Source: Pseudomonadota bacterium (GTDB taxonomy: Bacteria; Pseudomonadota; Gammaproteobacteria; Burkholderiales; REEB80). Taken from it: a stretch of DNA of 64,000 bases. The DNA lies in contig JAGXAQ010000002.1 of the NCBI GenBank assembly GCA_018971485.1, positions 171,706 through 235,705 of the forward strand. The letters are read 5' to 3'. The stretch's first letter is position 1; every line of letters starts with the position of its first letter. Shown piece by piece: positions 8,053 through 47,502 of this stretch. The notes beneath the pieces were generated by a model. That model searched no databases. It had not been told where the DNA came from and worked only from the letters and a program-made list of their open reading frames with translations. The translations under genes and the position numbers were made by a program.

Positions 8053-10140
8053 TTAAATGGATTCATAATTTAAAGATACCGGACTTCTAGCAACAGAATC
8101 TAGATCCTCCAGTCCCCACTGGGCCATTTTTACTTTATCGGCCAATGACCATACACCCAGATGCAAGGACAGCATAGAATGACGATCACCTAGCAGGGTA
8201 TTACGTTCTTTCTGTGTCAAATGATCAGGGCCAAGTTCAAGCGCCTTCTGACATAACAGCCTATGTTTGGCACTGTAATTACGATTGCGCTGCAAAGCCA
8301 CATGGAGTGCATTAAGCTGGGGATCAACGACTACTTGAACAAATGGATCATCTTTTAAACAAGGAAACTTAATCCAGATATCCTGCGACAGTTCCAGCAA
8401 TTCTGCAGGAGGATCATGCTCTTCCGGGATCACAAACAGACAATTCTGCCTCGCTGCACGCCCAACGGATGCCCGGCTAGTCCAGACTGCCAAGGGTACC
8501 GCCACTGACATGCCTAATAAAACTGGGGCAAGCCAATCAAAATAACCCTTGCCCAGAAAAAGATAACCCAAGGCGGCCAGAACAAGCCCGACAACTGAAC
8601 ACCATCCAAAATCCTGCCAACCCCCAGCCCATGAAATGGCTTGATCTGAACGAACCTGTACACCCCAACGAGCACTTTTCCCACGAAAAACCTGAAAAAC
8701 AAACTGGCTATGAAAGAACATCCGGATAGGAGCCATTAGAATAGAGTATAGCATCTCCAGGATTACGCTTAATCCTAAACGAATTCTCCCTCCAAACCGA
8801 GTGGCTTGATGAGGCTGGGCTATAACCCAAAATAATGCCATAAATTTTGGAGAAAAAAGCAAAAATGCGGTTAACCCGAATATCCAGGCTGGAAACAGTT
8901 CAAATATTCCTTCTGCATTCATTCCTCCCCCGCTTCTTTGCCAGTACCAGGCAGCAACTGCACCTAACAACAGAAACGCCCCCCATAAGGGAGCAGCGAG
9001 GAATGACATGACACCATTGACAAACAATAATCGATGCGCGGAACGTAATCCTTCACTCCACAACAATCTCATATGCTGAAGATTACCCTGTACCCAACGC
9101 CGATCCCGTTTTAAATCATCAATTAGAGTAGGCGGAACTTCCTCATAACTTCCATCCAGTTCAGGCACAAACCATACTTCCCACCCCCCCTTGGCCATAA
9201 GAGCTGCTTCTACAAAATCATGGCTAAGCAAAACCCCACCTAAAGGCGGATCTCCAGGCAGAACAGGCAAAGCACAATGCCGCATGAATGGTGCTACTCG
9301 CAAAATGGCATTATGTCCAATATAATGCCCATCCCCTAACTGTAAAAACCTCAGGCCAGCGCTAAATAAAGGGCCATAAAGCCGATGCGCAAACTGTTGC
9401 AACCGGGCATAGAGGGTTTCACGATTCACAGCAACCGGCTGAGTCTGGATAATGCCGATCTGGGGATTACCTTCCATCATTTTTAACAAATCCAACAACG
9501 TCCTGCCACTCATGACACTATCAGCATCCAACACCACCATATATTCATATCCCCTACCCCACCGCCTGCAGAAATCGGCAATATTTCCGCTCTTCGCCTT
9601 TTTGTTCATAGACCGGCGACGATAGTGTATGCGCCCAAATCCTTCAAGCATCTTACATAAACCTGCCCAGGCAATTTCTTCTTTAAGCCAAATCTCGGGA
9701 TCACGAGTATCACTGAGTAGAAAAAAATCAAAATAAGACAAGGCGCCTGCCGACTCAAGTGAACGGTACGTTGCCAACAGGCCCAACGCTACACGCCCGA
9801 CTTCTTCATTATAAATAGGTATAACAACCGCCACCCTGGTCTTTTCACGAGGCTGCCCCATAGATAGTTCCGGGCTTCCCTGAGAAATATGCACACTCCC
9901 ACGCAATAATAATATGAAGCCAGCCAGTGCAGTCCAAAAACCTACAGAAACCCAAGAAAAAAGCAGAATAAAAATAACCAGGATAGGTATTTCAAGCCAT
10001 AATGGCAAAGAATAGGCAAATGATTGGGCCAAAAGGGCAGATGCAAAGATAGTAGGAAAGATAACCAACGCCGTAAACCACATACGACGAGACTGGGCAA
10101 TGAGTTTCCAGGCGGGAGGGGGTTTTGTTAAGGCCAACAT
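8053..10140 (-). CDS. opgH: glucans biosynthesis glucosyltransferase H
   Basis: 695 aa multi-TM GT2 with VLDADSVM and QRxRW-like RDRRWVQGNLQH. Downstream of an OpgG/D gene. Confidence 0.9.
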   Translation of the reverse strand: MLALTKPPPAWKLIAQSRRMWFTALVIFPTIFASALLAQSFAYSLPLWLEIPILVIFILLFSWVSVGFWTALAGFILLLRGSVHISQGSPELSMGQPREKTRVAVVIPIYNEEVGRVALGLLATYRSLESAGALSYFDFFLLSDTRDPEIWLKEEIAWAGLCKMLEGFGRIHYRRRSMNKKAKSGNIADFCRRWGRGYEYMVVLDADSVMSGRTLLDLLKMMEGNPQIGIIQTQPVAVNRETLYARLQQFAHRLYGPLFSAGLRFLQLGDGHYIGHNAILRVAPFMRHCALPVLPGDPPLGGVLLSHDFVEAALMAKGGWEVWFVPELDGSYEEVPPTLIDDLKRDRRWVQGNLQHMRLLWSEGLRSAHRLLFVNGVMSFLAAPLWGAFLLLGAVAAWYWQRSGGGMNAEGIFELFPAWIFGLTAFLLFSPKFMALFWVIAQPHQATRFGGRIRLGLSVILEMLYSILMAPIRMFFHSQFVFQVFRGKSARWGVQVRSDQAISWAGGWQDFGWCSVVGLVLAALGYLFLGKGYFDWLAPVLLGMSVAVPLAVWTSRASVGRAARQNCLFVIPEEHDPPAELLELSQDIWIKFPCLKDDPFVQVVVDPQLNALHVALQRNRNYSAKHRLLCQKALELGPDHLTQKERNTLLGDRHSMLSLHLGVWSLADKVKMAQWGLEDLDSVARSPVSLNYESI

Positions 10141-10613
10141 TACCCCTGTAATGCGCGTCGAACTGCTGGAGTTCCTCTCCGAATGCCCAAAACGGTCAAG
10201 AAACGCCTACAAGCATCCCGCCATGAACGATTCAGTCTGAGAGGGACCATGGGCTGTCTCGCTAACGGCGGCTGTAGTTGCTGTTTCAACCACCCGGATA
10301 ATTTTTCCTGATTTTCATGCCGTTTCCGGTTTACACCTGACCAGGGCTGAAGCCGGATACCAAGTTCATCTCCTCCGGAAAGCCGGGCAAGAACTGTCTG
10401 CAAAACAGAAAAAACCAGACCGTAAGATACCTCGGTTTCTCCTGAAAGATTAACCCGTTCCAGCACCTCCTGCCTAATCCTGAAACGCTCGATATCATTC
10501 AATTGCAGACACCGCAGATATTGTTCAATCCGGCTCATTGCCAAATCATTCTTTTTAAGAACAGGAATATCATGGTGTAAACCTGCATTTGCATGGCGAA
10601 TTAGATTATCCAT
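10140..10613 (-). CDS. hypothetical basic protein embedded in the opg operon
   Basis: 157-aa ORF with no TM segment or signal peptide and an Arg-rich C-terminus. Its stop overlaps the opgH start (TAATG at 10138-10142), and it begins 10 nt after the opgD/G stop. I recognise no family. Confidence 0.5.
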   Translation of the reverse strand: MDNLIRHANAGLHHDIPVLKKNDLAMSRIEQYLRCLQLNDIERFRIRQEVLERVNLSGETEVSYGLVFSVLQTVLARLSGGDELGIRLQPWSGVNRKRHENQEKLSGWLKQQLQPPLARQPMVPLRLNRSWRDACRRFLTVLGIRRGTPAVRRALQG

Positions 10614-10622
10614 GAATAAAAG

Positions 10623-12167
10623 TTACTCCTTTGCCGCATTTAATAAATATAGCCAAGTATCACTCATCGTTTTATCATTCAAAACAAGATAGCAACGCAC
10701 ATCAGAAGGATGGCCAGAAACCGGGAGAATCGTAGCAGTTACTCGCCAGGAATGCTCAAAACGATCCCATTTAACTGATTGGTTCAAAATTTTCGCGCCC
10801 CTATCTACTCCTATTACAGCATGGACCCGGGCAGATGCTGACAGGTCTGACAGGCCAGGTCCAGCAAAATCAATCACTACCTGCCTTGATCCAGGTGCTT
10901 TTCCATCGCCTATGTAAGTAGCCACCGGATGACCGTTAGGGATAAGCCTTGGATTATCCAGAAAAAACCTGAGCCGATAGTTAAAATGATACGCTACACC
11001 CGGTGCTGGTTGGTGTTCGGGTATCCAAAAGGCGTCAATATTATCCAGATCTCGATTGTTTGTAGGCAATTCAACAAGCTGGATATGGCCCTTACCCCAT
11101 TTTCCTATGAAACTTACCCAAACACTGGGGCGTAATTGATATTTCGTCTGCAATCCCTCGTAAGAGGAAAAGTGGCGGTCCTGCTGAATCAGGCCAAACC
11201 CCTGAGGTTGATTCATGCCATAGGAAGTTATTTGCGTGTAAAGGGGATCGTTCAAGGGGCGGGTCACCCATTCCCCATTTCCATTTGCCATGACCAAATC
11301 GCTGGAATCATGCTGGGCAGGATGCCAATCTCCTGCCCTGACCCCTCGACCCCTTCCATGCCAGAACATGCTCGTTAAGGGTGCAATCTCAAGCTTCTGA
11401 ACAGGCTTTCTCATATAAATAACAGCCTTGACGCCCACCGTGACTGCTTTGCCTGGGTGAATGGTAAAACAATAGGCCCCAGTCGCAACCTTGCTGTCCA
11501 GAAGAGCATATACCACCATTTTTCTTGAACCATGATGGGGCTTTACAAGCCAGAACTCCCTAAAGTATGGAAAGATCTCACCGGACGGCAAAGCGGTATC
11601 AATACCCAAGCCACGGGCTGACGTACCATAAATCTGCCCAGTACCTACTGCCCTGAAATAACTCGCGCCCAAGAAAGAAATAAACTCATTTCTATGAGGG
11701 GGGGTATTAAGTGGGTACAAAAGCCGGAAACCGGCATAACCCATGTTCGATGGTAACTTATCCCCAATTCGAAGATCGCCAAAAGTGAAGCGGCGGGGTG
11801 AGAACGGGATAGGCTGAACCTGGCCATTAACAACACTATGAATCAAGACTGGGCGTTTAAAATAAGAACCAGGCAAATAAAACTGGGCATCAAATAACAA
11901 ATGTTCCTGATGCCATAAAGGATCCACATCCTGGATCATGGCATATTGAGACGGGGTCAGTTTCCTCAGCAGGCCTGGCACAGGGAAAGGTTTATTGTGA
12001 TAGGGCAAGCCAAGCAACTTTCTGGCTTTGGCCTGAACCTGAGCAAAGCCGAAAACGGTTGCAAATACTGGAGGAACTTGCCCTATGCCCAAAACGAAAA
12101 TACAACATGCAAGAAATAACCGTCTTCGAAACTGGCTTCTCAATACAATTAAGTTTTTTTGATCCAT
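10623..12167 (-). CDS. periplasmic glucan biosynthesis protein, OpgG/OpgD family
   Basis: 514 aa of the MdoG family (GASYFRA, FREFWL motifs). The N-terminal signal contains FRRRLFL, which is Tat-like and so OpgD-like. Confidence 0.85.
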   Translation of the reverse strand: MDQKNLIVLRSQFRRRLFLACCIFVLGIGQVPPVFATVFGFAQVQAKARKLLGLPYHNKPFPVPGLLRKLTPSQYAMIQDVDPLWHQEHLLFDAQFYLPGSYFKRPVLIHSVVNGQVQPIPFSPRRFTFGDLRIGDKLPSNMGYAGFRLLYPLNTPPHRNEFISFLGASYFRAVGTGQIYGTSARGLGIDTALPSGEIFPYFREFWLVKPHHGSRKMVVYALLDSKVATGAYCFTIHPGKAVTVGVKAVIYMRKPVQKLEIAPLTSMFWHGRGRGVRAGDWHPAQHDSSDLVMANGNGEWVTRPLNDPLYTQITSYGMNQPQGFGLIQQDRHFSSYEGLQTKYQLRPSVWVSFIGKWGKGHIQLVELPTNNRDLDNIDAFWIPEHQPAPGVAYHFNYRLRFFLDNPRLIPNGHPVATYIGDGKAPGSRQVVIDFAGPGLSDLSASARVHAVIGVDRGAKILNQSVKWDRFEHSWRVTATILPVSGHPSDVRCYLVLNDKTMSDTWLYLLNAAKE

Positions 12168-12605: not shown

Positions 12606-13202
12606 ATGCCCAATTCCAGCACACGTCCCATGCTTAACCCGGAAAACTGGCTGGATACATATGGAAACAAGCTATTTCGCTACGCTTTGGGCCACCTTCA
12701 GAATGAAGCCATGGCTGAAGACTGTCTTCAGGATACTCTTCTTGCAGCGCTTGAAAGTATGGGATCATTTCATGGCCAGTCCTCAGAATTAACCTGGCTC
12801 ACCGGGATTCTCAAGCATAAGATAATTGATCTGTATCGGAAGAAACACCATATCACCTATGAAAGCGATCTCACATCAAATGAGGATGAAGATCACACTG
12901 GTGATTTCTTTGATAGTACTGGCCACTGGATTGAAACTCCAACTGATTGGGGAAACCCGCAAAAACTTCTGGAAGAAAAGGCCTTTAAACAGACATTCGA
13001 AACCTGTTTAAAAAATATGCCTGCCGCCTTGGCGCTTATATTCAGCTGCAGAGAATCTTTGGAAATGAATACACAGGAAATCTGCAGGGCATTGGAAATT
13101 ACTGCAGCTAACAGCCGAATCATGCTCTATCGGGCAAGGTTACTTCTTCAAGGTTGCATTCAAACAAAATGGGGCAACCCCCAGGAGGAAAAACTTTCAT
13201 GA
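12606..13202 (+). CDS. ECF-type RNA polymerase sigma-70 family factor
   Basis: 198 aa. Region 2 is FRYALGHLQNEAMAEDCLQDTLLAA. Region 4 HTH is EICRALEITAANSRIMLYRARLLLQ. Confidence 0.85.
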   Translation: MPNSSTRPMLNPENWLDTYGNKLFRYALGHLQNEAMAEDCLQDTLLAALESMGSFHGQSSELTWLTGILKHKIIDLYRKKHHITYESDLTSNEDEDHTGDFFDSTGHWIETPTDWGNPQKLLEEKAFKQTFETCLKNMPAALALIFSCRESLEMNTQEICRALEITAANSRIMLYRARLLLQGCIQTKWGNPQEEKLS

Positions 13203-13453
13203 TGGACTGCCACAAAGCCACACGGCTCATTTCACGTTCTCGCGAAATCAGGTTATCCCTTCTCAAACGCTTTAGCCTATTGCTACACCTGAAAACCTGT
13301 GATCCCTGTAGTCATTTTCTTCGGCATCTTGCCCTGTTTTCACGCGCAGCCAAAGCTACTACCCCTTCTGACAAGAACCTGGATGAAGCTACGAAATCCC
13401 GCATTCTTTCAAACCTAAGTCAACATACCCCCACTCCACGCACGCCCTCTTAA
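13199..13453 (+). CDS. zinc-finger (zf-HC2 / ZAS) anti-sigma factor, short and without a TM segment
   Basis: The ATG at 13199 overlaps the sigma stop (ATGA). The HLKTCDPC motif equals HxxxCxxC, with an extra Cys at residue 4. 84 aa with no hydrophobic span. Confidence 0.65.
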   Translation: MMDCHKATRLISRSREIRLSLLKRFSLLLHLKTCDPCSHFLRHLALFSRAAKATTPSDKNLDEATKSRILSNLSQHTPTPRTPS

Positions 13454-13469
13454 AGAATCTTATTTTTTT

Positions 13470-13497
13470 TGTAACAGATCTTGATTCTGTCCGACTA
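13470..13497 (+). promoter_or_regulatory. candidate ECF-type promoter upstream of the DUF2282 gene
   Basis: TGTAACA at 13470-13476 and CCGACTA at 13491-13497. The AAC-N16-CGAC spacing resembles the ECF consensus GAAC-N16/17-CGTC. About 70 nt upstream of the start codon. Confidence 0.3.
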
Positions 13498-13568
13498 ATG
13501 CTCAGATCGGTCAACGATCACCTCCCCCGGTCTTAAGCCGGTTTCATGACTTGAAAAAAGGAAATAAA

Positions 13569-13838
13569 ATGAAAAAAGAATTTGCCATCCAATCTGCCAT
13601 TGCGGGGCTAGTCGCACTTGGCGCAATTGCTGCCACATCTCCCGCATTTGCGGCAAGTGCCCCCGTCGAAAAATGTTTCGGCATCAATGCACCTCATATG
13701 AATGATTGTGCTGTCGCAAACAGTAGCCACTCCTGTGCCGGACAGGCAACAAAAGCTGACGAAAAAGATGCTTTTGTGCTCGTTCCTCATGGAACATGCC
13801 ACAAAATTGAAGGTGGCAGTCTGACACCTACACTATAA
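13569..13838 (+). CDS. DUF2282 secreted Cys-containing peptide (BufA1-like RiPP precursor)
   Basis: The ATG at 13569 follows an AAGGA RBS. Sec signal is MKKEFAIQSAIAGLVALGAIAATSPAFA|AS. The mature part has 4 Cys (EKCFG, NDCA, HSCAG, GTCHK). The stop overlaps the next start (TAATG). Confidence 0.8.
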   Translation: MKKEFAIQSAIAGLVALGAIAATSPAFAASAPVEKCFGINAPHMNDCAVANSSHSCAGQATKADEKDAFVLVPHGTCHKIEGGSLTPTL

Positions 13839-14689
13839 TGCCAAGTGCCCATCGGGCCATGCCTATTCCGGTTGCGGCCGGAATAGGCTTAAGAAGCCCC
13901 CACTACCGCGATATAGCTACACTATCTCCTTCTATCCCATGGCTTGAGGTCCATGCAGAAAATTTCTTTGGGGACGGAGGTCCCGATATAGCCTGGCTGG
14001 ATCAAATCCGACAGTGTTATCCACTCAGCATCCATGGAGTGGGGTTATCACTAGGAACAGCCGGACAACTTGATATGCAACATCTCAAGGCATTAAATCA
14101 AGTTGTCAGTCATTTTAAACCCGCTCTTGTTTCAGAACACTTAAGTTTCAGCAGGACATCATTTGCTCATGCCAATGATCTGCTTCCCATGCCTTATACG
14201 CGAGAAGCGGTTGAAACCATTGCCACCCACATTATCGAAACCCAAACCGTACTCGGACAAAAGATACTGGTTGAAAATATTTCAAGTTACCTTGAATTTC
14301 CAGAATCCATCATGCCTGAATGGGCTTTTATTGGTGAGGTAGTCAATGCTGCAGATTGCTATCTTCTTCTGGATGTCAATAACCTTTACGTCAATAGTAT
14401 CAATCATGGTTTTGATGCTCTTACCTATCTGGGAGGACTTCCAACAAGCCAAGTCCGCGAAATCCATCTGGCTGGACATACAGTAACCCATCATGCCCTA
14501 ATTGATACCCATGACACTCAAGTCTGTGATGCGGTATGGGATCTTTACACCAAATCTCTCAAGCTAACCGGAAACCAACCCACCTTAATCGAATGGGACA
14601 GCAATATCCCTGAGCTTTCTGTTCTTCTATCTGAAGCTAAAAAGGCTCAGACCTGTCTGGAGCAAAATCATGCCATTATCCCTTGCTGA
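13838..14689 (+). CDS. DUF692 / MNIO (multinuclear non-heme iron oxidative) enzyme, MbnB/BufB-like
   Basis: 283 aa TIM-barrel DUF692 pattern: GIGLRSPHY, WLEVHAENF, SIHGVGLSLG, SEHLSF, LVENISSY, LLLDVNNLYVN, IHLAGH, LIEWD. Confidence 0.85.
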   Translation: MPSAHRAMPIPVAAGIGLRSPHYRDIATLSPSIPWLEVHAENFFGDGGPDIAWLDQIRQCYPLSIHGVGLSLGTAGQLDMQHLKALNQVVSHFKPALVSEHLSFSRTSFAHANDLLPMPYTREAVETIATHIIETQTVLGQKILVENISSYLEFPESIMPEWAFIGEVVNAADCYLLLDVNNLYVNSINHGFDALTYLGGLPTSQVREIHLAGHTVTHHALIDTHDTQVCDAVWDLYTKSLKLTGNQPTLIEWDSNIPELSVLLSEAKKAQTCLEQNHAIIPC

Positions 14690-15446
14690 CTGGCAAACCA
14701 CATTCATGAAAGAACTACAAGGGTCCCCTTCTGCTTTTTTCAAAAAGGCAGTGAACCCTAAAACTGTTCAGGCAAGAACGCTGATTTACCGGAACACTAT
14801 ATTTAACAACAAGCTTAATGCACTTAAAATCTCATTTCCAATCGTTCATGCGCTGATCGGAGACGCCTGTTTTCAGGGGCTGTCACATTCTTATATTGAA
14901 AACCATCCCTCCACTTCAGGGAACCTGAATTTTTATGGAAAAAATTTCCCTGAATTTATTAAAAATAATAATATTATCAATCAGGTAATCTATCTGGCAG
15001 ATATGGCCCGATTAGAGTGGCTTATTCATGAACTTCGATTTACAGCAGAAGACTCACCCAATAATTTAAGTCGATTAGAGTTTGTCCCCAGCCATGCACT
15101 TGAGTCATTACGCTTTCACTTTCAACCTTCAGTCAAAATGCTCCACTCCCCATTCCCGGTAAGCACCATCTGGAAAATGCATCAACCGAACTCAGATATA
15201 AAAACTGTCCACTTGAATGAAGGTGAGGACTGGATCCTGTTACGTCAACTTCAAGGAAAATACTTATTCTTATCTTTATCTCCCGATGCCTGGGTATGCA
15301 CTGAGGCTCTGTTTCGCTTTGAAACCATAGGCTCAGCCTTTAGCCTTGCCATTGAAAAAAACGAACAATTCGATCTTTCAGCCCATCTTACCACCCTAGC
15401 AACACTCAATCTTTTAACTGATTATGTTTTTAAGGAAAAACCATGA
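14670..15446 (+). CDS. DUF2063 protein (BufC-like MNIO partner)
   Basis: 258 aa with N-terminal LQ..F...L and the YRN motif (LIYRNTIFNN..ALKISFP) typical of DUF2063. Overlaps the MNIO gene by 20 nt. Confidence 0.8.
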   Translation: MPLSLADWQTTFMKELQGSPSAFFKKAVNPKTVQARTLIYRNTIFNNKLNALKISFPIVHALIGDACFQGLSHSYIENHPSTSGNLNFYGKNFPEFIKNNNIINQVIYLADMARLEWLIHELRFTAEDSPNNLSRLEFVPSHALESLRFHFQPSVKMLHSPFPVSTIWKMHQPNSDIKTVHLNEGEDWILLRQLQGKYLFLSLSPDAWVCTEALFRFETIGSAFSLAIEKNEQFDLSAHLTTLATLNLLTDYVFKEKP

Positions 15447-15895
15447 AAAACAGCTGCAAAGCCGTCATTAAACTAGCCAAAAATGGAATTGCCGGGCTGG
15501 ACTATTTAAGTCCAGTTATGGATCTGGCCGCCAGAATCTGGCTTGCCAATGTTTTTTTTCGGGCAGGATATGTCAAGATTTCAAGCTGGAGCAGTACACT
15601 TCAACTGTTTGATTACGTTTACCACGTCCCTTATCTCCCACCCCATGTCGCAGCCTATCTGGCAGCAGGCGTTGAACTAGGTGGCTCAGTTCTTCTTGCT
15701 CTTGGATTCGGGGCACGATTTGCTGCCATAGCCTTATCCATTCTCAATGCAACCGCTGTCATATCCTATTCTGGATTAGGAGCAGCTGGGCTTGAAGAGC
15801 ATTTTTTCTGGGGCTTATTACTTCTTATTTTTATTTTTCATGGGCCAGGTAAATTATCACCGGATTACCTCATTAGAAAAAAAATAACAGGCTGA
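15443..15895 (+). CDS. DoxX family membrane protein
   Basis: 150 aa with four hydrophobic helices and a DoxX-like LAARIWLANVFFRAGYVKI. ATGA overlap with the upstream gene. Confidence 0.8.
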   Translation: MKNSCKAVIKLAKNGIAGLDYLSPVMDLAARIWLANVFFRAGYVKISSWSSTLQLFDYVYHVPYLPPHVAAYLAAGVELGGSVLLALGFGARFAAIALSILNATAVISYSGLGAAGLEEHFFWGLLLLIFIFHGPGKLSPDYLIRKKITG

Positions 15896-16140
15896 CTCAA
15901 TGGATAACAGACCCCAGCCTTCGGGCCAAGGAACAGGGCCGTGCTAGAAACTTAAAATACAGTCGACTGTTGTTTCACGGCAAACAATCGAAATCGAAAA
16001 TGAATCGCCCCGTGTTTTGAAGGGGTTGATTGAAGTAAGTCATGCCGCTTGACCGGTCTGACGTCCGGGTTGCTGCTTATTAACTAAACCAGGCCATTGT
16101 GTTTCGTAGTGGCAGTCCATTCACTCATGTTGTTTTTTGC

Positions 16141-16425
16141 TTAGCATGCTTCAGCCAGGCGCTGAACTTCTTTTGGCGGATTCTGTTGCGCCTGCCATAA
16201 ATCGTATTGAGACTGCATGTTAATCCAGAATTCAGGGGTAGTGCCAAGTGCCATGGAAAGTCTTAACGCCATGGTGGCAGTGATATTGGCGCGGCCATTA
16301 AGTACTGCAGAAATGGCTTGACGGCTCACACCGAGAGCATCGGCTACCTGGCCTATGGTTAAGTTGGCGGGCAAGTACTCGCGCAAAACCTCGCCAGGGT
16401 GTGCGGGATTGAACATTGTGCCCAT
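16141..16425 (-). CDS. higA: HigA-family antitoxin (XRE HTH)
   Basis: 94 aa with HPGEVLREYL...GQVADALGVSRQAISAVLNGRANITATMALRL, the canonical HigA pattern. Lies downstream of the toxin. Confidence 0.8.
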   Translation of the reverse strand: MGTMFNPAHPGEVLREYLPANLTIGQVADALGVSRQAISAVLNGRANITATMALRLSMALGTTPEFWINMQSQYDLWQAQQNPPKEVQRLAEAC

Positions 16426-16470
16426 GATTTATCTCCTCTGACTAACCCTATCAGGGTTGGTTTTAGTAAT

Positions 16471-16749
16471 TTAATGATAGTCCTCATAATCAACCAGTAT
16501 GGCGTTCTCTCCTTCGAATCTGAAAGTTAGCCGCCAGTTGCCATTTACTGAAACTGCATAGACATCTTTCATGTCCCCTTTCAGGGGATGAAACTGCCAG
16601 CCGGAAGCATCCATGTCTTCTGGCTGGATTGCGGAATTAAGCGCTGTAAGTTGTATACGCACTCTTTTTTCATGGGAGGGCTGAATCCCGGCTTTGCTAC
16701 CTGATTCGAAAAACTCCTTAAGCCCCTTATGTTGAAAGCTTTTAATCAT
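16471..16749 (-). CDS. higB: HigB toxin (RelE/ParE superfamily, plasmid maintenance system killer type)
   Basis: 92 aa: MIKSF.HKGL..FF..G...GI........L..L......DM....FHPLKGD....YAVSVNGNWRLTFRFEG....VDYEDYH. Confidence 0.8.
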   Translation of the reverse strand: MIKSFQHKGLKEFFESGSKAGIQPSHEKRVRIQLTALNSAIQPEDMDASGWQFHPLKGDMKDVYAVSVNGNWRLTFRFEGENAILVDYEDYH

Positions 16750-16790
16750 TTTTACATGCTGTATCTCTGATGGATAAGTTGATTGTAAAG

Positions 16791-16809
16791 TGACAAGTTA
16801 CACTTGTCA
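16791..16809. promoter_or_regulatory. perfect 8-bp inverted repeat (TGACAAGT-TAC-ACTTGTCA), candidate HigA operator
   Basis: Read directly from the sequence. Lies 42 nt upstream of the higB start, in the divergent higB / HNH-like intergenic region. Confidence 0.4.
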
Positions 16810-16882
16810 AATGCAAGTATAAATTAATCATTCATTAAACATGAGCCGCTTCGGCGGGTATTTTTATATCTGGAGAAACAAG

Positions 16883-17320
16883 ATGACTCGCGTATCACAA
16901 ATCCACGAAGAAAAGGAAACACTGGTTGTGGACATCAATATCCCTGGTCATGAAGTCCGCACGACAACCAGGTTGTTCACGGAATCAAAGAAGATCCTGG
17001 TCAAACGGGTTGGTGGCCGCTGTTATGTCTGTGGCAGGACGACAGAAGATTCTGGCCACCCCTTGGAAGCCCATCATCATCCCATTGAACGCAGCCTTGC
17101 CAACATGATCGATTGGGATCTGTTCCGCAAGGATTGCGAGGCTGGGGTATGGGGCGAGCATGCCCAGGGTTTTGACTGGTCAAAGTTCGATCCGGCTGAT
17201 CCATACACTTTCGTTGCTGACATGACGGTCAACGGGGAATTACTCTGTAAGGAACATCATACAGGCAAGGATGAAGGCAAGCATAATCTGCCTTTTCCGC
17301 TCTGGATTGCACAGAAATAA
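16883..17320 (+). CDS. HNH-like (Cys/His-rich) phage-related protein
   Basis: CYVCG...EAHHHPIE...NG.LLCKEHH pattern. The ATG at 16883 follows a GGAG RBS. Family assignment is tentative. Confidence 0.4.
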   Translation: MTRVSQIHEEKETLVVDINIPGHEVRTTTRLFTESKKILVKRVGGRCYVCGRTTEDSGHPLEAHHHPIERSLANMIDWDLFRKDCEAGVWGEHAQGFDWSKFDPADPYTFVADMTVNGELLCKEHHTGKDEGKHNLPFPLWIAQK

Positions 17321-17358
17321 GGAAGGTTACCGTTTCACGGACAAGGAGGTTATCCATC

Positions 17359-17823
17359 ATGAAGCCGTCTGAGTTTATTTCCAGAATTTCCCCTGCAGCG
17401 CAGGACTCGATGCAAAGAACCAGGATTCCTGCGAGCTTTGTCATAGCAGAAGGGGCACTGGAATCCGGTTGGGGATCTTCACAGCTGACTGAAATGGGGC
17501 TCAACCTGTTCGGCGTGAAAGCCGACCCGTCATGGCATGGTCCGACCATCGAGATGCGTACACGGGAATACCTGCATGGTGAATGGCTCATGGTGCCAGC
17601 AAGATGGCGAAAATATTCTACATGGCTTGAATGCATTGACGATCACGCGCGGTTCTTGCTGAATAACCCGCGCTATGAGAAAGCGTTCACACATGCCAAT
17701 GATGCGGTTGCATTTACAAGAGCCATCGCGGCAGCTGGTTATGCAACCGATCCATCCTATGCCGGCAAAATCATCTCAATCATCCATGGCCATAACCTGA
17801 TCCAATTCGACAAGGTCGATTAA
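17359..17823 (+). CDS. glucosaminidase-domain peptidoglycan hydrolase (GH73 / FlgJ C-terminal type), phage lysin-like
   Basis: AEGALESGWG, NLFGVKA, TREY, NPRY and AGYATDPSYAGKI motifs. Confidence 0.75.
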   Translation: MKPSEFISRISPAAQDSMQRTRIPASFVIAEGALESGWGSSQLTEMGLNLFGVKADPSWHGPTIEMRTREYLHGEWLMVPARWRKYSTWLECIDDHARFLLNNPRYEKAFTHANDAVAFTRAIAAAGYATDPSYAGKIISIIHGHNLIQFDKVD

Positions 17824-18040
17824 ATCATGAACTGGAAAGGTAATCCTCCCACAAAAAGTTGGGATAGAAGTAGGATTTCCTTCCTCTCAAAAAAAATCAC
17901 GCTAACTGATAGTTAAATGATGATAAGTTAGATGAAGTCGACCGGATAATTTCAATAAATGAAACGCGTAAATTACTGCGCAAATCTTTTTTGAAGATTC
18001 ACCTGCAGAAGTTCTTTTAGAGCTTTTTAAATTCAATCCG

Positions 18041-19039
18041 CTACTTGAATGGTAGCCTTCCTAGTTTAAAGTTTTTAGCTATTTCCTCGGCAGATTCGTT
18101 GTAATAGCGTTGCAACATCTTTAGTTCTCGATGCCCGACCATCCTGCCCAACTCCAGGATGTTCAGCTTCCTTGCCAACATGGTAATCGCATAATGACGT
18201 GAATCATGAAAATGCAGATCCTCGATGTTGGCTTTTTTCCTCACCTTCCTGAACAGATTTTCAATTTGAGAAAGGGTTAATTTGAAGTCACACCCTACAC
18301 GCTCAAGATTAGTGATAGCCTTATCCAACAAAGGAACATCTCGCCTGGCTGCTCGTGTTTTTCCTGCACCGAGTTCACTCCCCCTGATCTTGAGGTAGCG
18401 CTTGTCCAGATAAACATCTTCGGCCTTAAGGACACATATCTCACCCTGCCTCATCCCTGTTTCCAGGGCAAACAAGAATACCTGGCCCACTCTTCCCATC
18501 ACGCTTTTGATATTGTCTCCGAATACTTGCATCAGCTGGTCAATTTCATCCTGCGTGATAAGCCTATCCCGTCCTTCGGGTTCTTTTGGTTTGGAAGCAT
18601 CACTAAATGGATTTTTAGCAAGCAGTTTCCACTCCTTAACAGCCTTGGTGCAAATGGAAGAGAGAAGGTTCCATTCACGCCGGACAGTACCCTCTGATAC
18701 GGACTGCAGGCGTTCATCCCGCCACTTGCCAACATGAGTCTCGCATCCATCTCTGATAAGCACACACTGGCGATGCTTTGGCGGCTTATGGCTTGTATCC
18801 TTATTTTTTCCACACGCTCCCCTTTTTTTCTTGATCGAAACCTCATTGGCATATTTATCCATGAGCTCACTGAAAGCCATGGTGACGACCTTTTCGTGTT
18901 TACCGGATAAAATGGCCTGCTCGGTTTCTTCAATCCACTGAAGCGCTTCCAGCTTCGTATCACGGGTTGCCGATTTCCTGACACCTTTTAACACGACTTG
19001 CGCCCTCCATGTTTTGCCTCGTTTAGTAAGAGTACCCAT
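18041..19039 (-). CDS. tyrosine-type site-specific integrase (open ORF, but the central segment is probably frame-disrupted)
   Basis: Catalytic signature ETGMRQGE (R), HDSRH (HxxR), GH and LQRYY (Y). Adjacent to a tRNA. See the finding on the 18740-18829 frame anomaly. Confidence 0.8.
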   Translation of the reverse strand: MGTLTKRGKTWRAQVVLKGVRKSATRDTKLEALQWIEETEQAILSGKHEKVVTMAFSELMDKYANEVSIKKKRGACGKNKDTSHKPPKHRQCVLIRDGCETHVGKWRDERLQSVSEGTVRREWNLLSSICTKAVKEWKLLAKNPFSDASKPKEPEGRDRLITQDEIDQLMQVFGDNIKSVMGRVGQVFLFALETGMRQGEICVLKAEDVYLDKRYLKIRGSELGAGKTRAARRDVPLLDKAITNLERVGCDFKLTLSQIENLFRKVRKKANIEDLHFHDSRHYAITMLARKLNILELGRMVGHRELKMLQRYYNESAEEIAKNFKLGRLPFK

Positions 19040-19186
19040 ATGACCCCATAGGAGGTCTGGTGTAAATTTGGTGTAAACCTACCACAAAATACAGGGTGAA
19101 ATGTGATATTTTGGGAATATGCAGGAAATAAAAAATCCGTTTAATCAAAAAGATAACGGATAATCATTATATTGCAGGTATAGGGG

Positions 19187-19262
19187 TGGTGCCGGAAAGA
19201 GGAGTCGAACCCCCGACCTTCGCATTACGAATGCGCTGCTCTACCAACTGAGCTATTCCGGC
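19187..19262 (-). tRNA. tRNA-Thr (anticodon CGU)
   Basis: The reverse complement reads GCCGGAATAGCTCAGTTGGTAGAGCAGCGCATTCGTAATGCGAAGGTCGGGGGTTCGACTCCTCTTTCCGGCACCA. It forms a cloverleaf with anticodon loop TTCGTAA and is nearly identical to E. coli thrW. Confidence 0.95.
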
Positions 19263-19323: not shown

Positions 19324-19746
19324 CTATTGAGACTTAGGCCTGATACGGATAACAATCTCAATCCCATCGGCTTCCATCCCAGTTGGAAGAGAAGGTAAAC
19401 CATGAATAGCGATATTTTGTGCATCAACATCGTATAAACGACCATTAACCACATCATAAAAGTGATGATGCTCAAGTGTATTTGGATCATAAAAAACTTT
19501 ATTTGGATCAACTATTACTTCTCGAATCAGGCGTTGACGCACAAAAAGATTCAATGTGTTATAAACCGTCGCCTTTGACGTCTCGCTATATAGGTGGTTC
19601 ACAGCTGATAATACCTGGTCTGCACTCAAATGCTCTCCTCGAGAAAAAAGCGCATACGCTATCTCGATCCTCTGGTGGGTAGGACTAATATCATGTTCCC
19701 TTAATAAGGCATGGGCCTGTTCACGAGAATGAATCATTTGTGTCAT
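19324..19746 (-). CDS. Fur-family transcriptional regulator (no cysteines)
   Basis: 140 aa with a winged helix (PTHQRIEIAYALF...HLSADQV...ATVYNTLNLF) and an HHHF metal-site motif. It lacks both CxxC pairs. Confidence 0.7.
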   Translation of the reverse strand: MTQMIHSREQAHALLREHDISPTHQRIEIAYALFSRGEHLSADQVLSAVNHLYSETSKATVYNTLNLFVRQRLIREVIVDPNKVFYDPNTLEHHHFYDVVNGRLYDVDAQNIAIHGLPSLPTGMEADGIEIVIRIRPKSQ

Positions 19747-19788: not shown

Positions 19789-20877
19789 TCAAAATCCATC
19801 CAGCTGATGTGGCCAGACATAAGGTTTAAGAGAGATAGCCGCTTCCTGATCCAGAAAACGGCTAACCAATAATTTTGCTGAACCAGGTGCCATAGTTACC
19901 CCATAACGAAAATGCCCGGTATTGACATATAAATTACTCAAAAGTGGATGCCTATCAATAACCGGGATACTCTGCGGCGAACCTGGACGCAGTCCTGCCC
20001 ATTGCTGAACAAACTCTGAGTCCCTTAACCAAGGCAACAGGTCTGTGGCACGATGGAATAGATTTTCACGGGCATCCGACGTTGGATTTTTATCAAAACC
20101 AACCTCTTCAAGCGTACTCCCCGTCAAAACGTGCCCGTCCTTGCGAGGAATAATATATGTACCTTGATGATAAATTATCTGCTTCAACCGTGATGGCCTG
20201 TCCTTAAAAAGAAGCATTTGACCCCGTACTGGCCGAATAGAAAGATTTAAGGCATATGCGCCTAGGATAGACTGGCTCCAGGCTCCACCTGTAATCACAT
20301 AAGAACCTGCCTTGTATTGTCCCGAACTGGTTTCAAGTGCAATTATTCGGCTGTTTCGGGCTATCAAGCCAGTTACATCAACCCGTTCAACAATCTGAAC
20401 ACCACGCTTTTCCAAAACAGTTTTAAGGGATTGAGTAAGTCTCGGGTTACGAACCTGATATACATCTGGAAACCATAAAGCTTCTGTTTCAGATAAAAGA
20501 TCAGAAACAATCTCCTGGGGATTCACAATCTCACAGCGCATCCCACGTTGATTTATCCATGAAAGCGCTGAATGCATATCATAAGGAAACAAATGCACAA
20601 GCCCACTTTGTATCAGCTCTGGATCTACTCCTCCTTCCGCAAACAATTGTTCAGTCCAATTATGATAAAGAGATAGACTGTATTCTGCCAAAATATTGAC
20701 AGGTTCTGCATAGTCCCAAGGCATCAATGGAAACAGGATTCCGCCGCCTGCCCAGGAAGACTCTTGGCCCACCAAGCCTCGATCAAGAATAAGAACCTGA
20801 TATCCTGCCCTGGAAAATTCATAGCCCGTAGCAAGCCCAATTAAGCCTGCTCCCACTATCAAGACGTCAGCAGACAT
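19789..20877 (-). CDS. thiO: FAD-dependent oxidoreductase, glycine oxidase ThiO-like
   Basis: 362 aa with the VLIVGAGLIGLATGYEFSRAGYQVLILD Rossmann fold and SSWAGGGIL. DAO family. The substrate assignment is tentative. Confidence 0.55.
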   Translation of the reverse strand: MSADVLIVGAGLIGLATGYEFSRAGYQVLILDRGLVGQESSWAGGGILFPLMPWDYAEPVNILAEYSLSLYHNWTEQLFAEGGVDPELIQSGLVHLFPYDMHSALSWINQRGMRCEIVNPQEIVSDLLSETEALWFPDVYQVRNPRLTQSLKTVLEKRGVQIVERVDVTGLIARNSRIIALETSSGQYKAGSYVITGGAWSQSILGAYALNLSIRPVRGQMLLFKDRPSRLKQIIYHQGTYIIPRKDGHVLTGSTLEEVGFDKNPTSDARENLFHRATDLLPWLRDSEFVQQWAGLRPGSPQSIPVIDRHPLLSNLYVNTGHFRYGVTMAPGSAKLLVSRFLDQEAAISLKPYVWPHQLDGF

Positions 20878-44637: not shown

Positions 44638-45177
44638 ATGACAACACTGATTCTTTTTAACAAGCCTTATGGCGTCGTCTGCCAGTTCAGTCCTCATGAA
44701 AAACACCCTACACTCAAGAATTTTATCCCGATTACGCATGTCTATCCTGCAGGAAGGCTCGACACTGACAGCGAAGGATTACTGCTTCTGACAGACAATG
44801 GATCCTTGCAGTATAAGCTTAGCCATCCAGATCATCATCTTCCAAAAACGTACTGGGTACAAGTGGAAGGAGAACCTTCAGATAAAGCAATTAAAGAACT
44901 CAGAACTGGTGTTAACCTTGGCCCTTACACAACCCGTCCTGCACTTGTCAAACAAATTGACCCACCAGAGATTCCCTCCAGAAATCCTCCAGTCAGATAT
45001 CGAAAATCCATCCCAACAAACTGGCTTGAGATCATTCTTAATGAGGGGAAAAACAGGCAAATCAGACATATGACCGCAAAAGTTGGTTATCCAACTCTCA
45101 GGCTTATCCGCTATAGCATAGGAAATTATAACATAAGCTCCCTTAACTTCGGACAATGGAGCATTCAGGATAATTAA
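44638..45177 (+). CDS. rluE: 23S rRNA pseudouridine synthase RluE (RsuA family)
   Basis: 179 aa with the AGRLDTDSEGLLLLTDNG catalytic Asp motif. No S4 domain, which matches RluE. Confidence 0.8.
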   Translation: MTTLILFNKPYGVVCQFSPHEKHPTLKNFIPITHVYPAGRLDTDSEGLLLLTDNGSLQYKLSHPDHHLPKTYWVQVEGEPSDKAIKELRTGVNLGPYTTRPALVKQIDPPEIPSRNPPVRYRKSIPTNWLEIILNEGKNRQIRHMTAKVGYPTLRLIRYSIGNYNISSLNFGQWSIQDN

Positions 45178-45206: not shown

Positions 45207-45878
45207 TTATTCAAGCTTGCCGCACAGGAGTTCCTTCATTTGCATTCTAAACTGATTTGCTCCCCCTCGAGCTGGATGACGCACAACTTTACACTCCAAC
45301 CCCATGTCCGCCAGAAGGCTTTGGGCTTTCAAACCTACTGCTACTAACCTTACATCATCAAAAAGATCAAGGAACTGAAGAAACAAGGGCTTTATCATAT
45401 TTAACTCATTCCGCGTGGGAGGCCGATTAGTTAAGCTTTTCTTCTCTAAATGAGGATGCCATGGGAAAGCATTCCACAATACAACTGTATAGGGATCCAC
45501 ACCTGAATGAATCATCATGTCCCACACAATCGATGCCGTAGGTTCATTAAATCCACCAGCCTTGATACTGGTTTGAACGGGGTTCCCTGCAAACACGCTG
45601 GAAGGCGAAATGTTTTCTTTTCCCCCCAGAATTATCCTCTCGCTAGTCATGGCGATTCCCGTAAATTTCCCTCCCTGATACGACAAGCCTTCTGCAACCA
45701 GAATTAAATTAGCCTTACCTATACGTTGGGCCAGATAAGTTTTAAGCTGCTCCTGACGTACAAGACTAGATCCTGGTTTGTCCCATACCGGATCAACATC
45801 ATGCCAAGGATTAAAAACCTGTTCATTACCAGGCCAACTGCTTAAGTTTTCTATGAACGCCTCAAGTTTTTCACTCAT
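45207..45878 (-). CDS. uracil-DNA glycosylase superfamily protein
   Basis: 223 aa with a UDG-like layout: FNPW, LILVAEGLSYQGG.FTG, and a late HPARGG. Subfamily not assigned. Confidence 0.5.
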   Translation of the reverse strand: MSEKLEAFIENLSSWPGNEQVFNPWHDVDPVWDKPGSSLVRQEQLKTYLAQRIGKANLILVAEGLSYQGGKFTGIAMTSERIILGGKENISPSSVFAGNPVQTSIKAGGFNEPTASIVWDMMIHSGVDPYTVVLWNAFPWHPHLEKKSLTNRPPTRNELNMIKPLFLQFLDLFDDVRLVAVGLKAQSLLADMGLECKVVRHPARGGANQFRMQMKELLCGKLE

Positions 45879-45991: not shown

Positions 45992-46453
45992 ATGGTTTGG
46001 AATCCAAATATAACTGTTGCAGCCATTATTGAAGAAAAAGGACGTTTTCTCCTCGTAGAAGAAAAGGTTGATGGCGAACTGGTTCTCAATCAACCAGCAG
46101 GACATCTTGAACGTGGCGAGAGCCTAACGCAAGCAGTCATACGCGAAACCCGTGAAGAGGCAGCCTGCATATTTGTTCCCGAATCCTTAATCGGTATCTA
46201 CCATTGGCAACATCCAGCTAAACCCATAACCTATATCCGCTTTGCCTTTTCAGGAACAGTCCAAGAATACCTGGCAGACCAGCCTCTTGATCAAGGAATC
46301 ACTCGGACTGTCTGGATGAATATCAGCGAAATTCGGGCTAATCGCATTCATCACCGCAGCCCGATGCTACTCGCAAATATTGAAGATTACCTGGCTGGTC
46401 AGATCCATAATCTGGATCTGATACACACTCTCTTCATCTCGGAAAATAAATAA
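45992..46453 (+). CDS. NUDIX hydrolase
   Basis: Nudix box [21 protein letters not shown]. Immediately upstream of mnmA, a common synteny. Confidence 0.8.
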
Positions 46454-47502
46454 TGGCAAGAGTAATTGTTGGCATGTCAGGTGGAGTTGACTCTTCCGTT
46501 GCAGCCATGCTGCTCAAAGAACAAGGCCATGAGGTCATTGGCCTTTTTATGAGAAACTGGGAAGATGATGATGGATTCTGTCCTGCTAAACAGGACTTTC
46601 TGGACGTTGCCGCTGTAACTGATAAATTGGGTATTGATCTGGAAGCTGTTGATTTCAGTTCCGAATACAAAGAAAGGGTGTTCAGCTATTTTTTAACTGA
46701 ATATAACGCTGGCCGCACACCAAACCCAGATATCCTGTGTAATTCAGAAATCAAGTTCAAGGCTTTTCTTGATCATGCGTTAAAACTGGGCGCAGATTTT
46801 ATCGCTACTGGTCACTATGCAAGAATTCAATACCACGATGGCCGTCCATTCCTGTGCAAAGCTTATGACAAAAACAAAGACCAAAGCTACTTTCTCTATC
46901 GGCTAAAAGAATGGCAGCTTGAAAAAACCATATTCCCCCTGGGTGAACTCAACAAACCTACTGTTCGTGATCTTGCCCGAACAGCGGGTCTCATCGTTCA
47001 CGACAAAAAAGATTCAACAGGTATCTGCTTTATTGGAGAACGCCCTTTCCGCGCTTTTCTTTCCCAATATCTCAAGGGAACACCAGGTCCTATTAAAACC
47101 GCGGAAGGAAAAACTATAGGAGAACATGTGGGGCTTATGTTTTACACAATTGGGCAAAGGCAAGGGCTTGGCATCGGAGGGCCGGGCGCACCCTGGTTTG
47201 TTGCTGGGAAAGATCTTAAAAATAACACCCTGACGGTTGTTCAGGGGCGAGACCACCCACTACTCAAAACTCTATCTGCATGGGCATCTGATCTTAGTTT
47301 TATCAATAATAGCCCTCTGCCTGAGTATCAAATTAGTGCCAAAACACGCTACAGACAAACCGACGCTTCCTGCCTTATCCAGAAGATTCAGGACACACAG
47401 GTTGAAGTTCGCTTTAATGTTCCTCAGTGGGCCGTTACACCGGGACAATCATTAGTATTATATGATCGTGAGGTTTGTCTTGGTGGAGGCATCCTCGTCT
47501 AA
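46453..47502 (+). CDS. mnmA: tRNA 2-thiouridine(34) synthase
   Basis: [14 protein letters not shown]-loop, NPDILCN and DQSYFL motifs. Confidence 0.95.

Follow-up and report, generated by a model that had tools for sequence, protein, structure and literature searches.

A Very Probable Bufferin-1 Precursor Gene Heading a bufABCD Operon in an Uncultured Pseudomonadota Genome

Introduction

What is the function of a small protein that combines a predicted export signal with four cysteines, and what would be the fate of each of these cysteines? The question is raised by an open reading frame (ORF) at positions 13569..13838 (forward strand) of a 64,000-nucleotide stretch of contig JAGXAQ010000002.1 (assembly GCA_018971485.1, a Pseudomonadota bacterium), hereafter called the window. 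A first, sequence-only reading had proposed that this ORF encodes the precursor of a ribosomally made peptide with post-translational modifications (RiPP), of the DUF2282/BufA1 kind. According to the analysis reported here, this gene, named bufA, stands at the head of a translationally coupled bufABCD operon and very probably specifies the precursor of a ribosomal peptide metallophore of the bufferin-1 (Buf1/DUF2282) type. The family is already published and very large, and bufA is an ordinary, intact member of it; the proposal is correct but not new.

With this locus, a family that already numbers thousands gains one more intact bufferin-1 operon, in this case from an uncultured Pseudomonadota genome. 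For annotation, the gene name should be bufA (bufferin precursor) rather than "membrane protein," with the start at ATG 13569, and its four downstream and upstream partners should be grouped with it as one regulon. The only unusual details of the locus are two rare His residues that flank the fourth cysteine (core Cys49) and a predicted soluble anti-sigma factor of the zinc-binding anti-sigma (ZAS) type in the place of NrsF; these are small leads on the metal selectivity and regulation of bufferins, and they open no new question.

The bufA Gene and Its Product

The ORF runs from an ATG at 13569 to a TAA stop codon at 13836-13838 and encodes 89 residues, MKKEFAIQSAIAGLVALGAIAATSPAFA|ASAPVEKCFGINAPHMNDCAVANSSHSCAGQATKADEKDAFVLVPHGTCHKIEGGSLTPTL, where the bar separates the signal region from the core. 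The 61-aa core, which with the stop codon occupies 13653..13838 (forward strand), contains the DUF2282/BufA1 domain. The only Cys residues of the product are the four at 36, 47, 56, and 77 of the precursor (core positions 8, 19, 28, and 49, here CysI to CysIV), encoded at 13674-76, 13707-09, 13734-36, and 13797-99 and spaced 11/9/21. Their contexts (EKCFG, NDCAV, HSCAG, and GTCHK) and the His residues that flank several of them (core positions 15, 26, 46, and 50) had been pointed out in the sequence-only reading, and both can be read directly from the translation. The computed monoisotopic mass of the core is 6231.93 Da unmodified and would be 6221.86 Da in the expected mature form (minus 10 H). 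The core tryptic peptide CFGINAPHMNDCAVANSSHSCAGQATK holds both Cys19 and Cys28.

The start codon had been placed at ATG 13569 and not at the in-frame TTG at 13551, and this choice holds on several grounds. The ATG is preferred because it is preceded, 5 nt upstream, by a ribosome-binding site AAGGAA (13558..13563, forward strand), which is also present in the closest relative, a Pseudomonadota metagenome-assembled genome (L001), and which would be internal to an ORF started at TTG 13551. Similarly, Met stands in exactly this column in 95% of 135 aligned sequences, and the in-frame codons upstream of the ATG are not conserved, the corresponding sequence of the L001 orthologue being unrelated. 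In addition, the ATG is the start both in NCBI's entry for the protein (89 aa, 100% identical) and in a gene call made independently on a further assembly (L081). TTG 13551 was therefore rejected as an unlikely start. The identical protein is already in NCBI under the name "DUF2282 domain-containing protein."

Family Membership, Cysteine Conservation, and Predicted Fold

The membership of the product in the DUF2282 family is clear. Pfam PF10048 matches residues 34-85 over positions 2-53 of its 53-position profile, at 74.2 bits (gathering score 22.4; E = 8.2e-21), and the gene-call record of L081 labels the same Pfam family BufA1. A word-indexed protein search gave 5 relatives of bufA, too few to judge conservation, and 1.84 billion representative proteins were searched exhaustively with HMMER instead. 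This search returned 769 homologues at E <= 1e-3, 74 of them at E <= 1e-10. The query and 134 homologues of 75-125 aa (135 sequences) were then aligned with MAFFT.

All four Cys columns of this alignment are 100% Cys, which answers a check that the sequence-only reading had itself suggested, namely whether the cysteines align with those of DUF2282 members. The family motifs are E-K-C-[YF]-G, N-D-C, H-S-C-A-G, and P-x-G-x-C-x-K-[IL]-x-G-G, and the query conforms to them; its residues E34, K35, G38, N45, D46, H54, S55, A57, G58, P73, G75, K79, G82, and G83 match the consensus. Cysteine spacing is nearly fixed in the family at 11/7-9/21 (three classes), the 11/9/21 spacing of the query being found in 45 of the 135 sequences and most of the others having 11/7/21 or 11/8/21. 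With the bufBCD genes directly downstream, these results uphold the assignment to the DUF2282/BufA1 kind of RiPP precursor.

An AlphaFold2 (AF2) model built on a 61-sequence alignment gives the core a predicted local distance difference test score of 86-97, with strands at residues 33-37 (including Cys36) and 68-73 and a short helix at 77-79 (including Cys77). In the published fold of Buf1, a disulfide links the first strand and the short helix (PMC11626156). The predicted fold of the bufA core matches this description: it has a two-stranded sheet, whose first strand carries CysI, and a short helix, which carries CysIV. Sequence searches of the PDB with the bufA precursor gave chance matches only (E > 0.6), and a Foldseek comparison of the AF2 model with the PDB gave no match at E <= 0.001.

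The bufABCD Operon

Three genes follow bufA on the same strand. The first, bufB (13838..14689), encodes the MNIO (DUF692) bufferin maturase, and its ATG overlaps the bufA stop codon by one base (TAATG). It is followed by bufC (14670..15446), for a DUF2063 partner protein, with a 20-nt overlap with bufB, and by bufD (15443..15895), for a DoxX-family membrane protein, with a 4-nt overlap with bufC (ATGA). Because start and stop overlap at all three junctions, the genes form a single translationally coupled operon, bufABCD.

BufB matches Pfam MbnB_TglH_ChrH with 344 bits and the NCBIfam model MNIO_BufB with 359.2 bits (cut-off 310), and it is related to PDB entry 3bww at E = 8.5e-40. The same protein falls below the NCBIfam cut-offs for HvfB (251 vs 360 bits), ApyH, ChrH, and MbnB (TIGR04159, 37.2 vs 325 bits). 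In 81 BufB homologues, the invariance of each putative Fe ligand (H66, H101, E146, D179, N182, H210, D223, H225, and E252) is 97% or more, and these residues align with conserved motifs of 3bww, TglH, and MbnB; by motif they would correspond to H54, H90, E133, D163, N166, H192, D208, H210, and E239 of MbnB. By these sequence features the maturase looks functional. BufC is recognized by Pfam DUF2063 (70.3 bits vs a cut-off of 27.2), and a PDB sequence search with it gave no match. BufD matches Pfam DoxX (64.7 bits vs 23.6) and contains hydrophobic segments.

The arrangement is a common one. Among 80 related genome loci retrieved through BufB, a DUF2282 ORF lies immediately upstream of bufB in 76, bufC lies downstream of bufB in 78, and bufD is present in 58. 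In L001, whose BufB is 73% identical and whose core peptide is nearly identical, the same six genes, including the two regulatory genes described below, occur in unchanged order. No second copy of bufA, bufB, bufC, or bufD was found within the 64-kb window. A G+C-rich hairpin at 15912..15931, 17 nt past the bufD stop codon, was returned by a scan for terminator-like structures (8-pair stem, 5 GC pairs). It possibly marks the end of the operon; its role is uncertain, as the scan placed it on the reverse strand and the forward strand lacks a T-run.

Signal Peptide and Export

The first 28 residues of the precursor (MKKEFAIQSAIAGLVALGAIAATSPAFA, 13569..13652, forward strand) have the charge, the hydrophobic stretch, and the A-x-A site of a Sec signal peptide, with a predicted signal peptidase I site between A28 and A29. 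The n-region, MKKE, supplies Lys-Lys. It is followed by the single hydrophobic segment of the protein, rich in Ala, Leu, Gly, and Ile, whose Kyte-Doolittle mean reaches 2.57 over 9 residues and 1.84 over 19 (residues 4-24); AF2 places a low-confidence helix at residues 4-21. A helix-breaking Ser-Pro comes next and then A-F-A|A, which is the sole A-x-A site without a following Pro. This call is made from sequence heuristics and the family pattern, in which K/R followed by a hydrophobic stretch precedes CysI in 122 of the 135 sequences, and it is in line with the earlier prediction of a Sec signal peptide ending just before ASAP. Neither a Tat RR motif nor a lipobox was found in the N terminus, and both of these export routes, Tat and lipoprotein, were rejected.

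The sequence-only reading had also cast the signal peptide as the leader of the RiPP precursor. As an export signal this region fits the description; as a recognition element it probably does not. The signal peptide of Buf1 is dispensable for modification in Escherichia coli, and the core is involved in recognition (PMC11626156), so that by analogy the signal peptide of bufA is probably not a recognition leader. A further claim of the same reading, that modification precedes export, finds support in the maturation proteins: BufB and BufC have no signal peptide and no hydrophobic segment, and modification must therefore take place in the cytoplasm, before Sec export.

Comparison with Known Systems and Assignment of the Cysteines

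A characterized relative is Buf1 of Caulobacter vibrioides (BufA1/CCNA_03363, encoded by buf1ABCD; Leprevost et al., 2024, PMC11626156). Its DUF2282 precursor has a Sec signal peptide, and BufB1, an MNIO with two Fe, together with the DUF2063 protein BufC1, is necessary and sufficient for modification of BufA1 (PMC11626156). CysII (Cys23, after Asp) and CysIII (Cys31, in Ser-Cys-Ala) are converted to 5-thiooxazoles, with a loss of 4 Da each, and CysI (Cys12) and CysIV (Cys52) form a disulfide (PMC11626156). The peptide binds Cu2+ with a KD of about 6e-15 M and protects cells from copper, and Cys-to-Ser variants, which are unmodified, lose function (PMC11626156). Mass spectrometry of Buf1 shows a cut where signal peptidase was predicted to act, and Bla fused to the signal peptide is exported (PMC11626156).

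The bufA product resembles this system in several ways. It belongs to DUF2282, begins with a Sec signal peptide, and has four Cys with the same neighbors (E-x-C for CysI, D-C for CysII, and S-C-A for CysIII); the gene order is bufA-bufB(MNIO)-bufC(DUF2063)-bufD(DoxX); control would lie with an extracytoplasmic function (ECF) sigma factor and a similar promoter motif; and the predicted fold has two beta strands and a short helix. The comparison of residues uses the numbers and neighbors quoted by the authors (PMC11626156). There are also differences. The core has 61 aa here and 68 aa in Caulobacter, the loop between the modified Cys is one residue longer here (spacing 11/9/21 vs 11/8/21), and two extra His flank CysIV. 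The sigma factor is of the TIGR02943 type and is encoded directly upstream on the same strand, and the soluble 84-aa ZAS-type anti-sigma factor contrasts with the membrane protein NrsF (DUF1109) of Buf1 clusters (PMC12452194). Finally, the member described here is known from sequence alone.

According to the sequence-only reading, the sequence does not reveal the fate of each cysteine. Homology to Caulobacter Buf1 allows an assignment: Cys19 and Cys28 should be the heterocycle sites and Cys8-Cys49 the disulfide, because the flanking residues and the spacing match those of Buf1.

A mechanism can be proposed, its chemistry and copper binding by analogy with this homologue. The ZAS anti-sigma factor would hold the ECF sigma factor in the cytoplasm until metal or thiol stress leads to its release, and the released sigma factor would transcribe the operon from a candidate promoter, TGTAAC-N16-CGAC. 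BufB, as an iron-dependent MNIO oxidase, and its partner BufC would bind the 89-aa precursor in the cytoplasm and, with O2, convert Cys19 (NDC) and Cys28 (HSCAG) of the core to 5-thiooxazoles, with the loss of 4 H each. Sec would then export the modified peptide, and signal peptidase I would cut after AFA. In the periplasm, the Cys8-Cys49 disulfide would lock the small fold, with its two beta strands and short helix, and the thiooxazole loop would chelate excess copper and so buffer this compartment. BufD (DoxX) would act as an accessory membrane protein.

The gig operons of Cupriavidus metallidurans (gigPABT; PMC10304878) and Legionella pneumophila (lpg2105-2108; PMC5413113) share all four gene families and their order with bufABCD and are induced by copper and gold (PMC10304878, PMC5413113). 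As in the window, an ECF sigma/anti-sigma pair adjoins the operon in C. metallidurans; however, rpoQ-rsqA is divergent from the gig operon and RsqA is predicted to be membrane-bound, whereas the pair in the window points the same way as the operon and its anti-sigma factor is predicted to be soluble. The Legionella operon lies on an integrative conjugative element, whereas the operon described here lies in a housekeeping chromosomal region and abuts an apparent small element integrated at a tRNA-Thr gene.

Bufferin 2 and the EGKCG peptides oxazolin, fontiphorin, and gonophorin likewise obtain 5-thiooxazole copper ligands through an MNIO and a DUF2063 protein, and captophorins has been proposed as a common class name (bioRxiv 10.1101/2025.11.18.689057). 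The bufA product belongs to this proposed class, and it shares a signal-peptide-bearing precursor with Buf2 and oxazolin. Neither of the two more specific identities was retained. BufA2 proteins have 6 or 12 Cys, whereas bufA has four and scores 19.6 bits with the BufA2 model (NCBIfam NF050166; cut-off 60). Similarly, the EGKCG peptides of the HvfA-HvfB-HvfC type are repetitive, whereas the core of bufA has a single EKC and no repeats, and HvfB, HvfC, and HvfX score below their cut-offs, the last with 56 bits against 80.

Methanobactins (MbnA/MbnB/MbnC) are also copper-binding peptides, in which a Cys-derived heterocycle is formed by a DUF692/MNIO iron enzyme and a partner. Their precursors have a classical leader, and they are secreted as copper-uptake chalkophores. 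Their chemistry yields oxazolone/thioamide groups and not thiooxazoles. No signal peptide is predicted for methanobactin precursors (PMC12452194). The identification of bufA as a methanobactin was rejected: the TIGR04159 score is that given above, the partner is a DUF2063 protein with no MbnC here, and the precursor has a signal peptide.

Regulation of the buf Genes

Two regulatory genes precede bufA on the same strand. The first, at 12606..13202, encodes an ECF sigma factor with Pfam Sigma70_r2 and r4_2 domains and a match to NCBIfam TIGR02943 of 185.8 bits (cut-off 162.2); the gene call in L081 starts 8 codons later and gives 190 aa. Of the 80 related loci, 10 have a homologue of this sigma gene beside the buf operon (E <= 2e-36), and two more match at about 1e-14. 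Directly downstream, at 13199..13453, lies the gene for an 84-aa protein whose start overlaps the sigma stop codon (ATGA). Its size is the same in the L081 gene call, it has no hydrophobic segment, and it matches NCBIfam NF052368 with 41.7 bits, below the cut-off of 50, and no Pfam family. The motif C4-x25-H30-x3-C34-x2-C37 is kept in all six homologues found beside buf operons, that of L001 and those of five Burkholderiales loci. Its HxxxCxxC arrangement is one that we take to be the zinc-finger (ZAS) motif, as in RsrA, and on these features the product is predicted to be a soluble ZAS-type anti-sigma factor.

A candidate ECF-type promoter, TGTAAC-N16-CGAC (13470..13495, forward strand), lies in the 115 nt that separate the anti-sigma gene from bufA, about 75 nt upstream of the bufA start, with TGTAAC at 13470-13475 and CGAC at 13492-13495. 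It is the only copy of this motif in the window. L001 has the same two halves and the same CTAATGC after them, and a diverged spacer. The homologous operon of Caulobacter is driven by a mapped sigmaF site, GTAACC-N16-CGAA (PMC3511200). From motif conservation only, we infer that the buf genes may be regulated by the sigma/anti-sigma pair through this candidate promoter. A sigma-70 promoter scan found nothing above the shuffled expectation upstream of bufA or of the sigma gene. No copy of the ECF motif was found upstream of the sigma gene, and there is therefore no sign of autoregulation.

The 5' untranslated region of bufA also contains a small hairpin at 13527-13541 (forward strand; CCGG-tcttaag-CCGG, 4-bp stem), and the same place in L001 reads CGGG-cttacaa-CCCG, with one compensatory pair change. 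An Rfam scan of the whole window returned two tRNAs only and no known RNA element in this region.

Metal Target and Alternative Readings

Several points weigh against the bufferin-1 reading. Modification, cleavage site, and metal binding are transferred by homology, at about 35-60% identity to aligned family members. BufC matches HvfC weakly (54.2 bits, below the cut-off of 142), and its identity is given by the Pfam DUF2063 N-terminal domain alone. The candidate promoter resembles the Caulobacter site, but its spacer is one nucleotide shorter when both are written alike. The inducing signal may also differ from that of Buf1 clusters, because the anti-sigma factor is not of the NrsF type. Lastly, the homologous gig operon makes a small contribution to copper resistance in C. 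metallidurans (PMC10304878).

The alternative that survives best keeps the peptide and its chemistry and changes the target: the main role would concern another metal (Zn, Ni, Cd, or Au) or thiol/oxidative stress, and not copper. We consider this improbable, though it deserves more weight than any other alternative. Four His are present in the core, where the family median is 1, and His46 and His50, which bracket CysIV (PHGTCHK), occur in 0.7% and 3% of the 134 homologues, respectively. The predicted anti-sigma factor, a soluble C-x25-H-x3-C-x2-C protein and not NrsF, points the same way, as do the responses of homologous operons to gold, chromium, and cadmium besides copper; the authors of a family survey have also raised a role in the homeostasis of other metals (PMC12452194). 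However, the NDC and HSCAG thiooxazole motifs are unchanged from the copper-binding model, no Buf1 has been shown to bind another metal, the extra His are limited to two orthologues and may be neutral, and there are no metal-specific genes nearby.

A more elaborate proposal starts from the same residues. His46 and His50 occur together only in the query and the L001 orthologue, and their P-H-G-T-C-H-K motif at CysIV has almost no parallel in the family; one other homologue (P0099) has His46 only, and four others have His50 only. It might be hypothesized that bufA and this single close orthologue represent a His-enriched Buf1 sub-lineage (H15, H26, H46, and H50) with a soluble ZAS anti-sigma factor. 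The imidazoles would lie beside the thiooxazole loop and might alter metal selectivity or stoichiometry, for example through a second Cu(II), Zn, or Ni site, and the ZAS factor might couple expression to cytoplasmic thiol or metal stress and not to a periplasmic signal. This idea is speculative, and we hold it to be unlikely.

According to a further alternative, bufA would encode an exported, disulfide-bonded Cys protein that is not modified enzymatically, such as a periplasmic metallochaperone or redox protein, and its neighbors would act elsewhere. A sizeable share of DUF2282 genes in public genomes is not beside an MNIO gene (PMC12452194), and the C. metallidurans homologue GigP was so interpreted before 2024. 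Here, by contrast, bufA overlaps bufB by one base, and bufBCD is intact with invariant catalytic residues; in the model system, moreover, BufB and BufC are necessary and sufficient for modification, and the unmodified Cys-to-Ser variants lose function (PMC11626156). An unmodified protein is thus very unlikely. Least probable of all is a membrane-anchored protein with an uncleaved N-terminal signal anchor, as might be read from the Pfam title "Predicted integral membrane protein (DUF2282)," the JGI (Joint Genome Institute) name "uncharacterized membrane protein," and the N-terminal position of the sole hydrophobic segment, since this segment is short and rich in Ala and Gly, a helix-breaking SP comes after it and then a canonical A-F-A|A, the Pfam match (residues 34-85) lies outside it, and Buf1 is cleaved at the predicted site, with export also seen for Bla fused to its signal peptide (PMC11626156).

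Genomic Context

The bufferin-1 operon is set in a region of housekeeping chromosome, the rest of the window carrying rib, pmbA, opgGH, ileS, ispH, murJ, arg, dxs, acnB, and secD genes; no other copper genes were found there. Between bufD and a tRNA-Thr gene (19187-19262, reverse strand) lies an apparent small integrated element (16141-19262). It contains a higB/higA toxin-antitoxin pair (16141-16749, reverse strand), a 159-aa Cys/His-rich ORF without a Pfam match (16841-17320), a gene for a glucosaminidase-domain protein (17359-17823), and a tyrosine integrase gene (18041-19039, reverse strand) that adjoins the tRNA-Thr gene. A search for bounding direct repeats (att sites) between bufD and tRNA-Thr gave only short pairs at chance level.

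Just beyond tRNA-Thr, a gene for a 140-aa Fur-family regulator (19324-19746, reverse strand) stands beside a DAO-family FAD oxidoreductase gene (19789-20877). On the other side of the buf genes, a 157-aa ORF without a Pfam match (10140-10613, reverse strand) lies between an opgG-like gene (MdoG family, 10623-12167) and an opgH-like glycosyltransferase gene (8053-10140). It abuts the start of the latter and looks like an unannotated extra gene in the periplasmic-glucan operon. Farther away, a 223-aa ORF (45207-45878, reverse strand) that matches no Pfam family at E <= 1e-5 is situated between a gene of an RNA pseudouridine synthase family (44638-45177) and an MnmA-like gene with a tRNA-methyltransferase domain (46453-47502).

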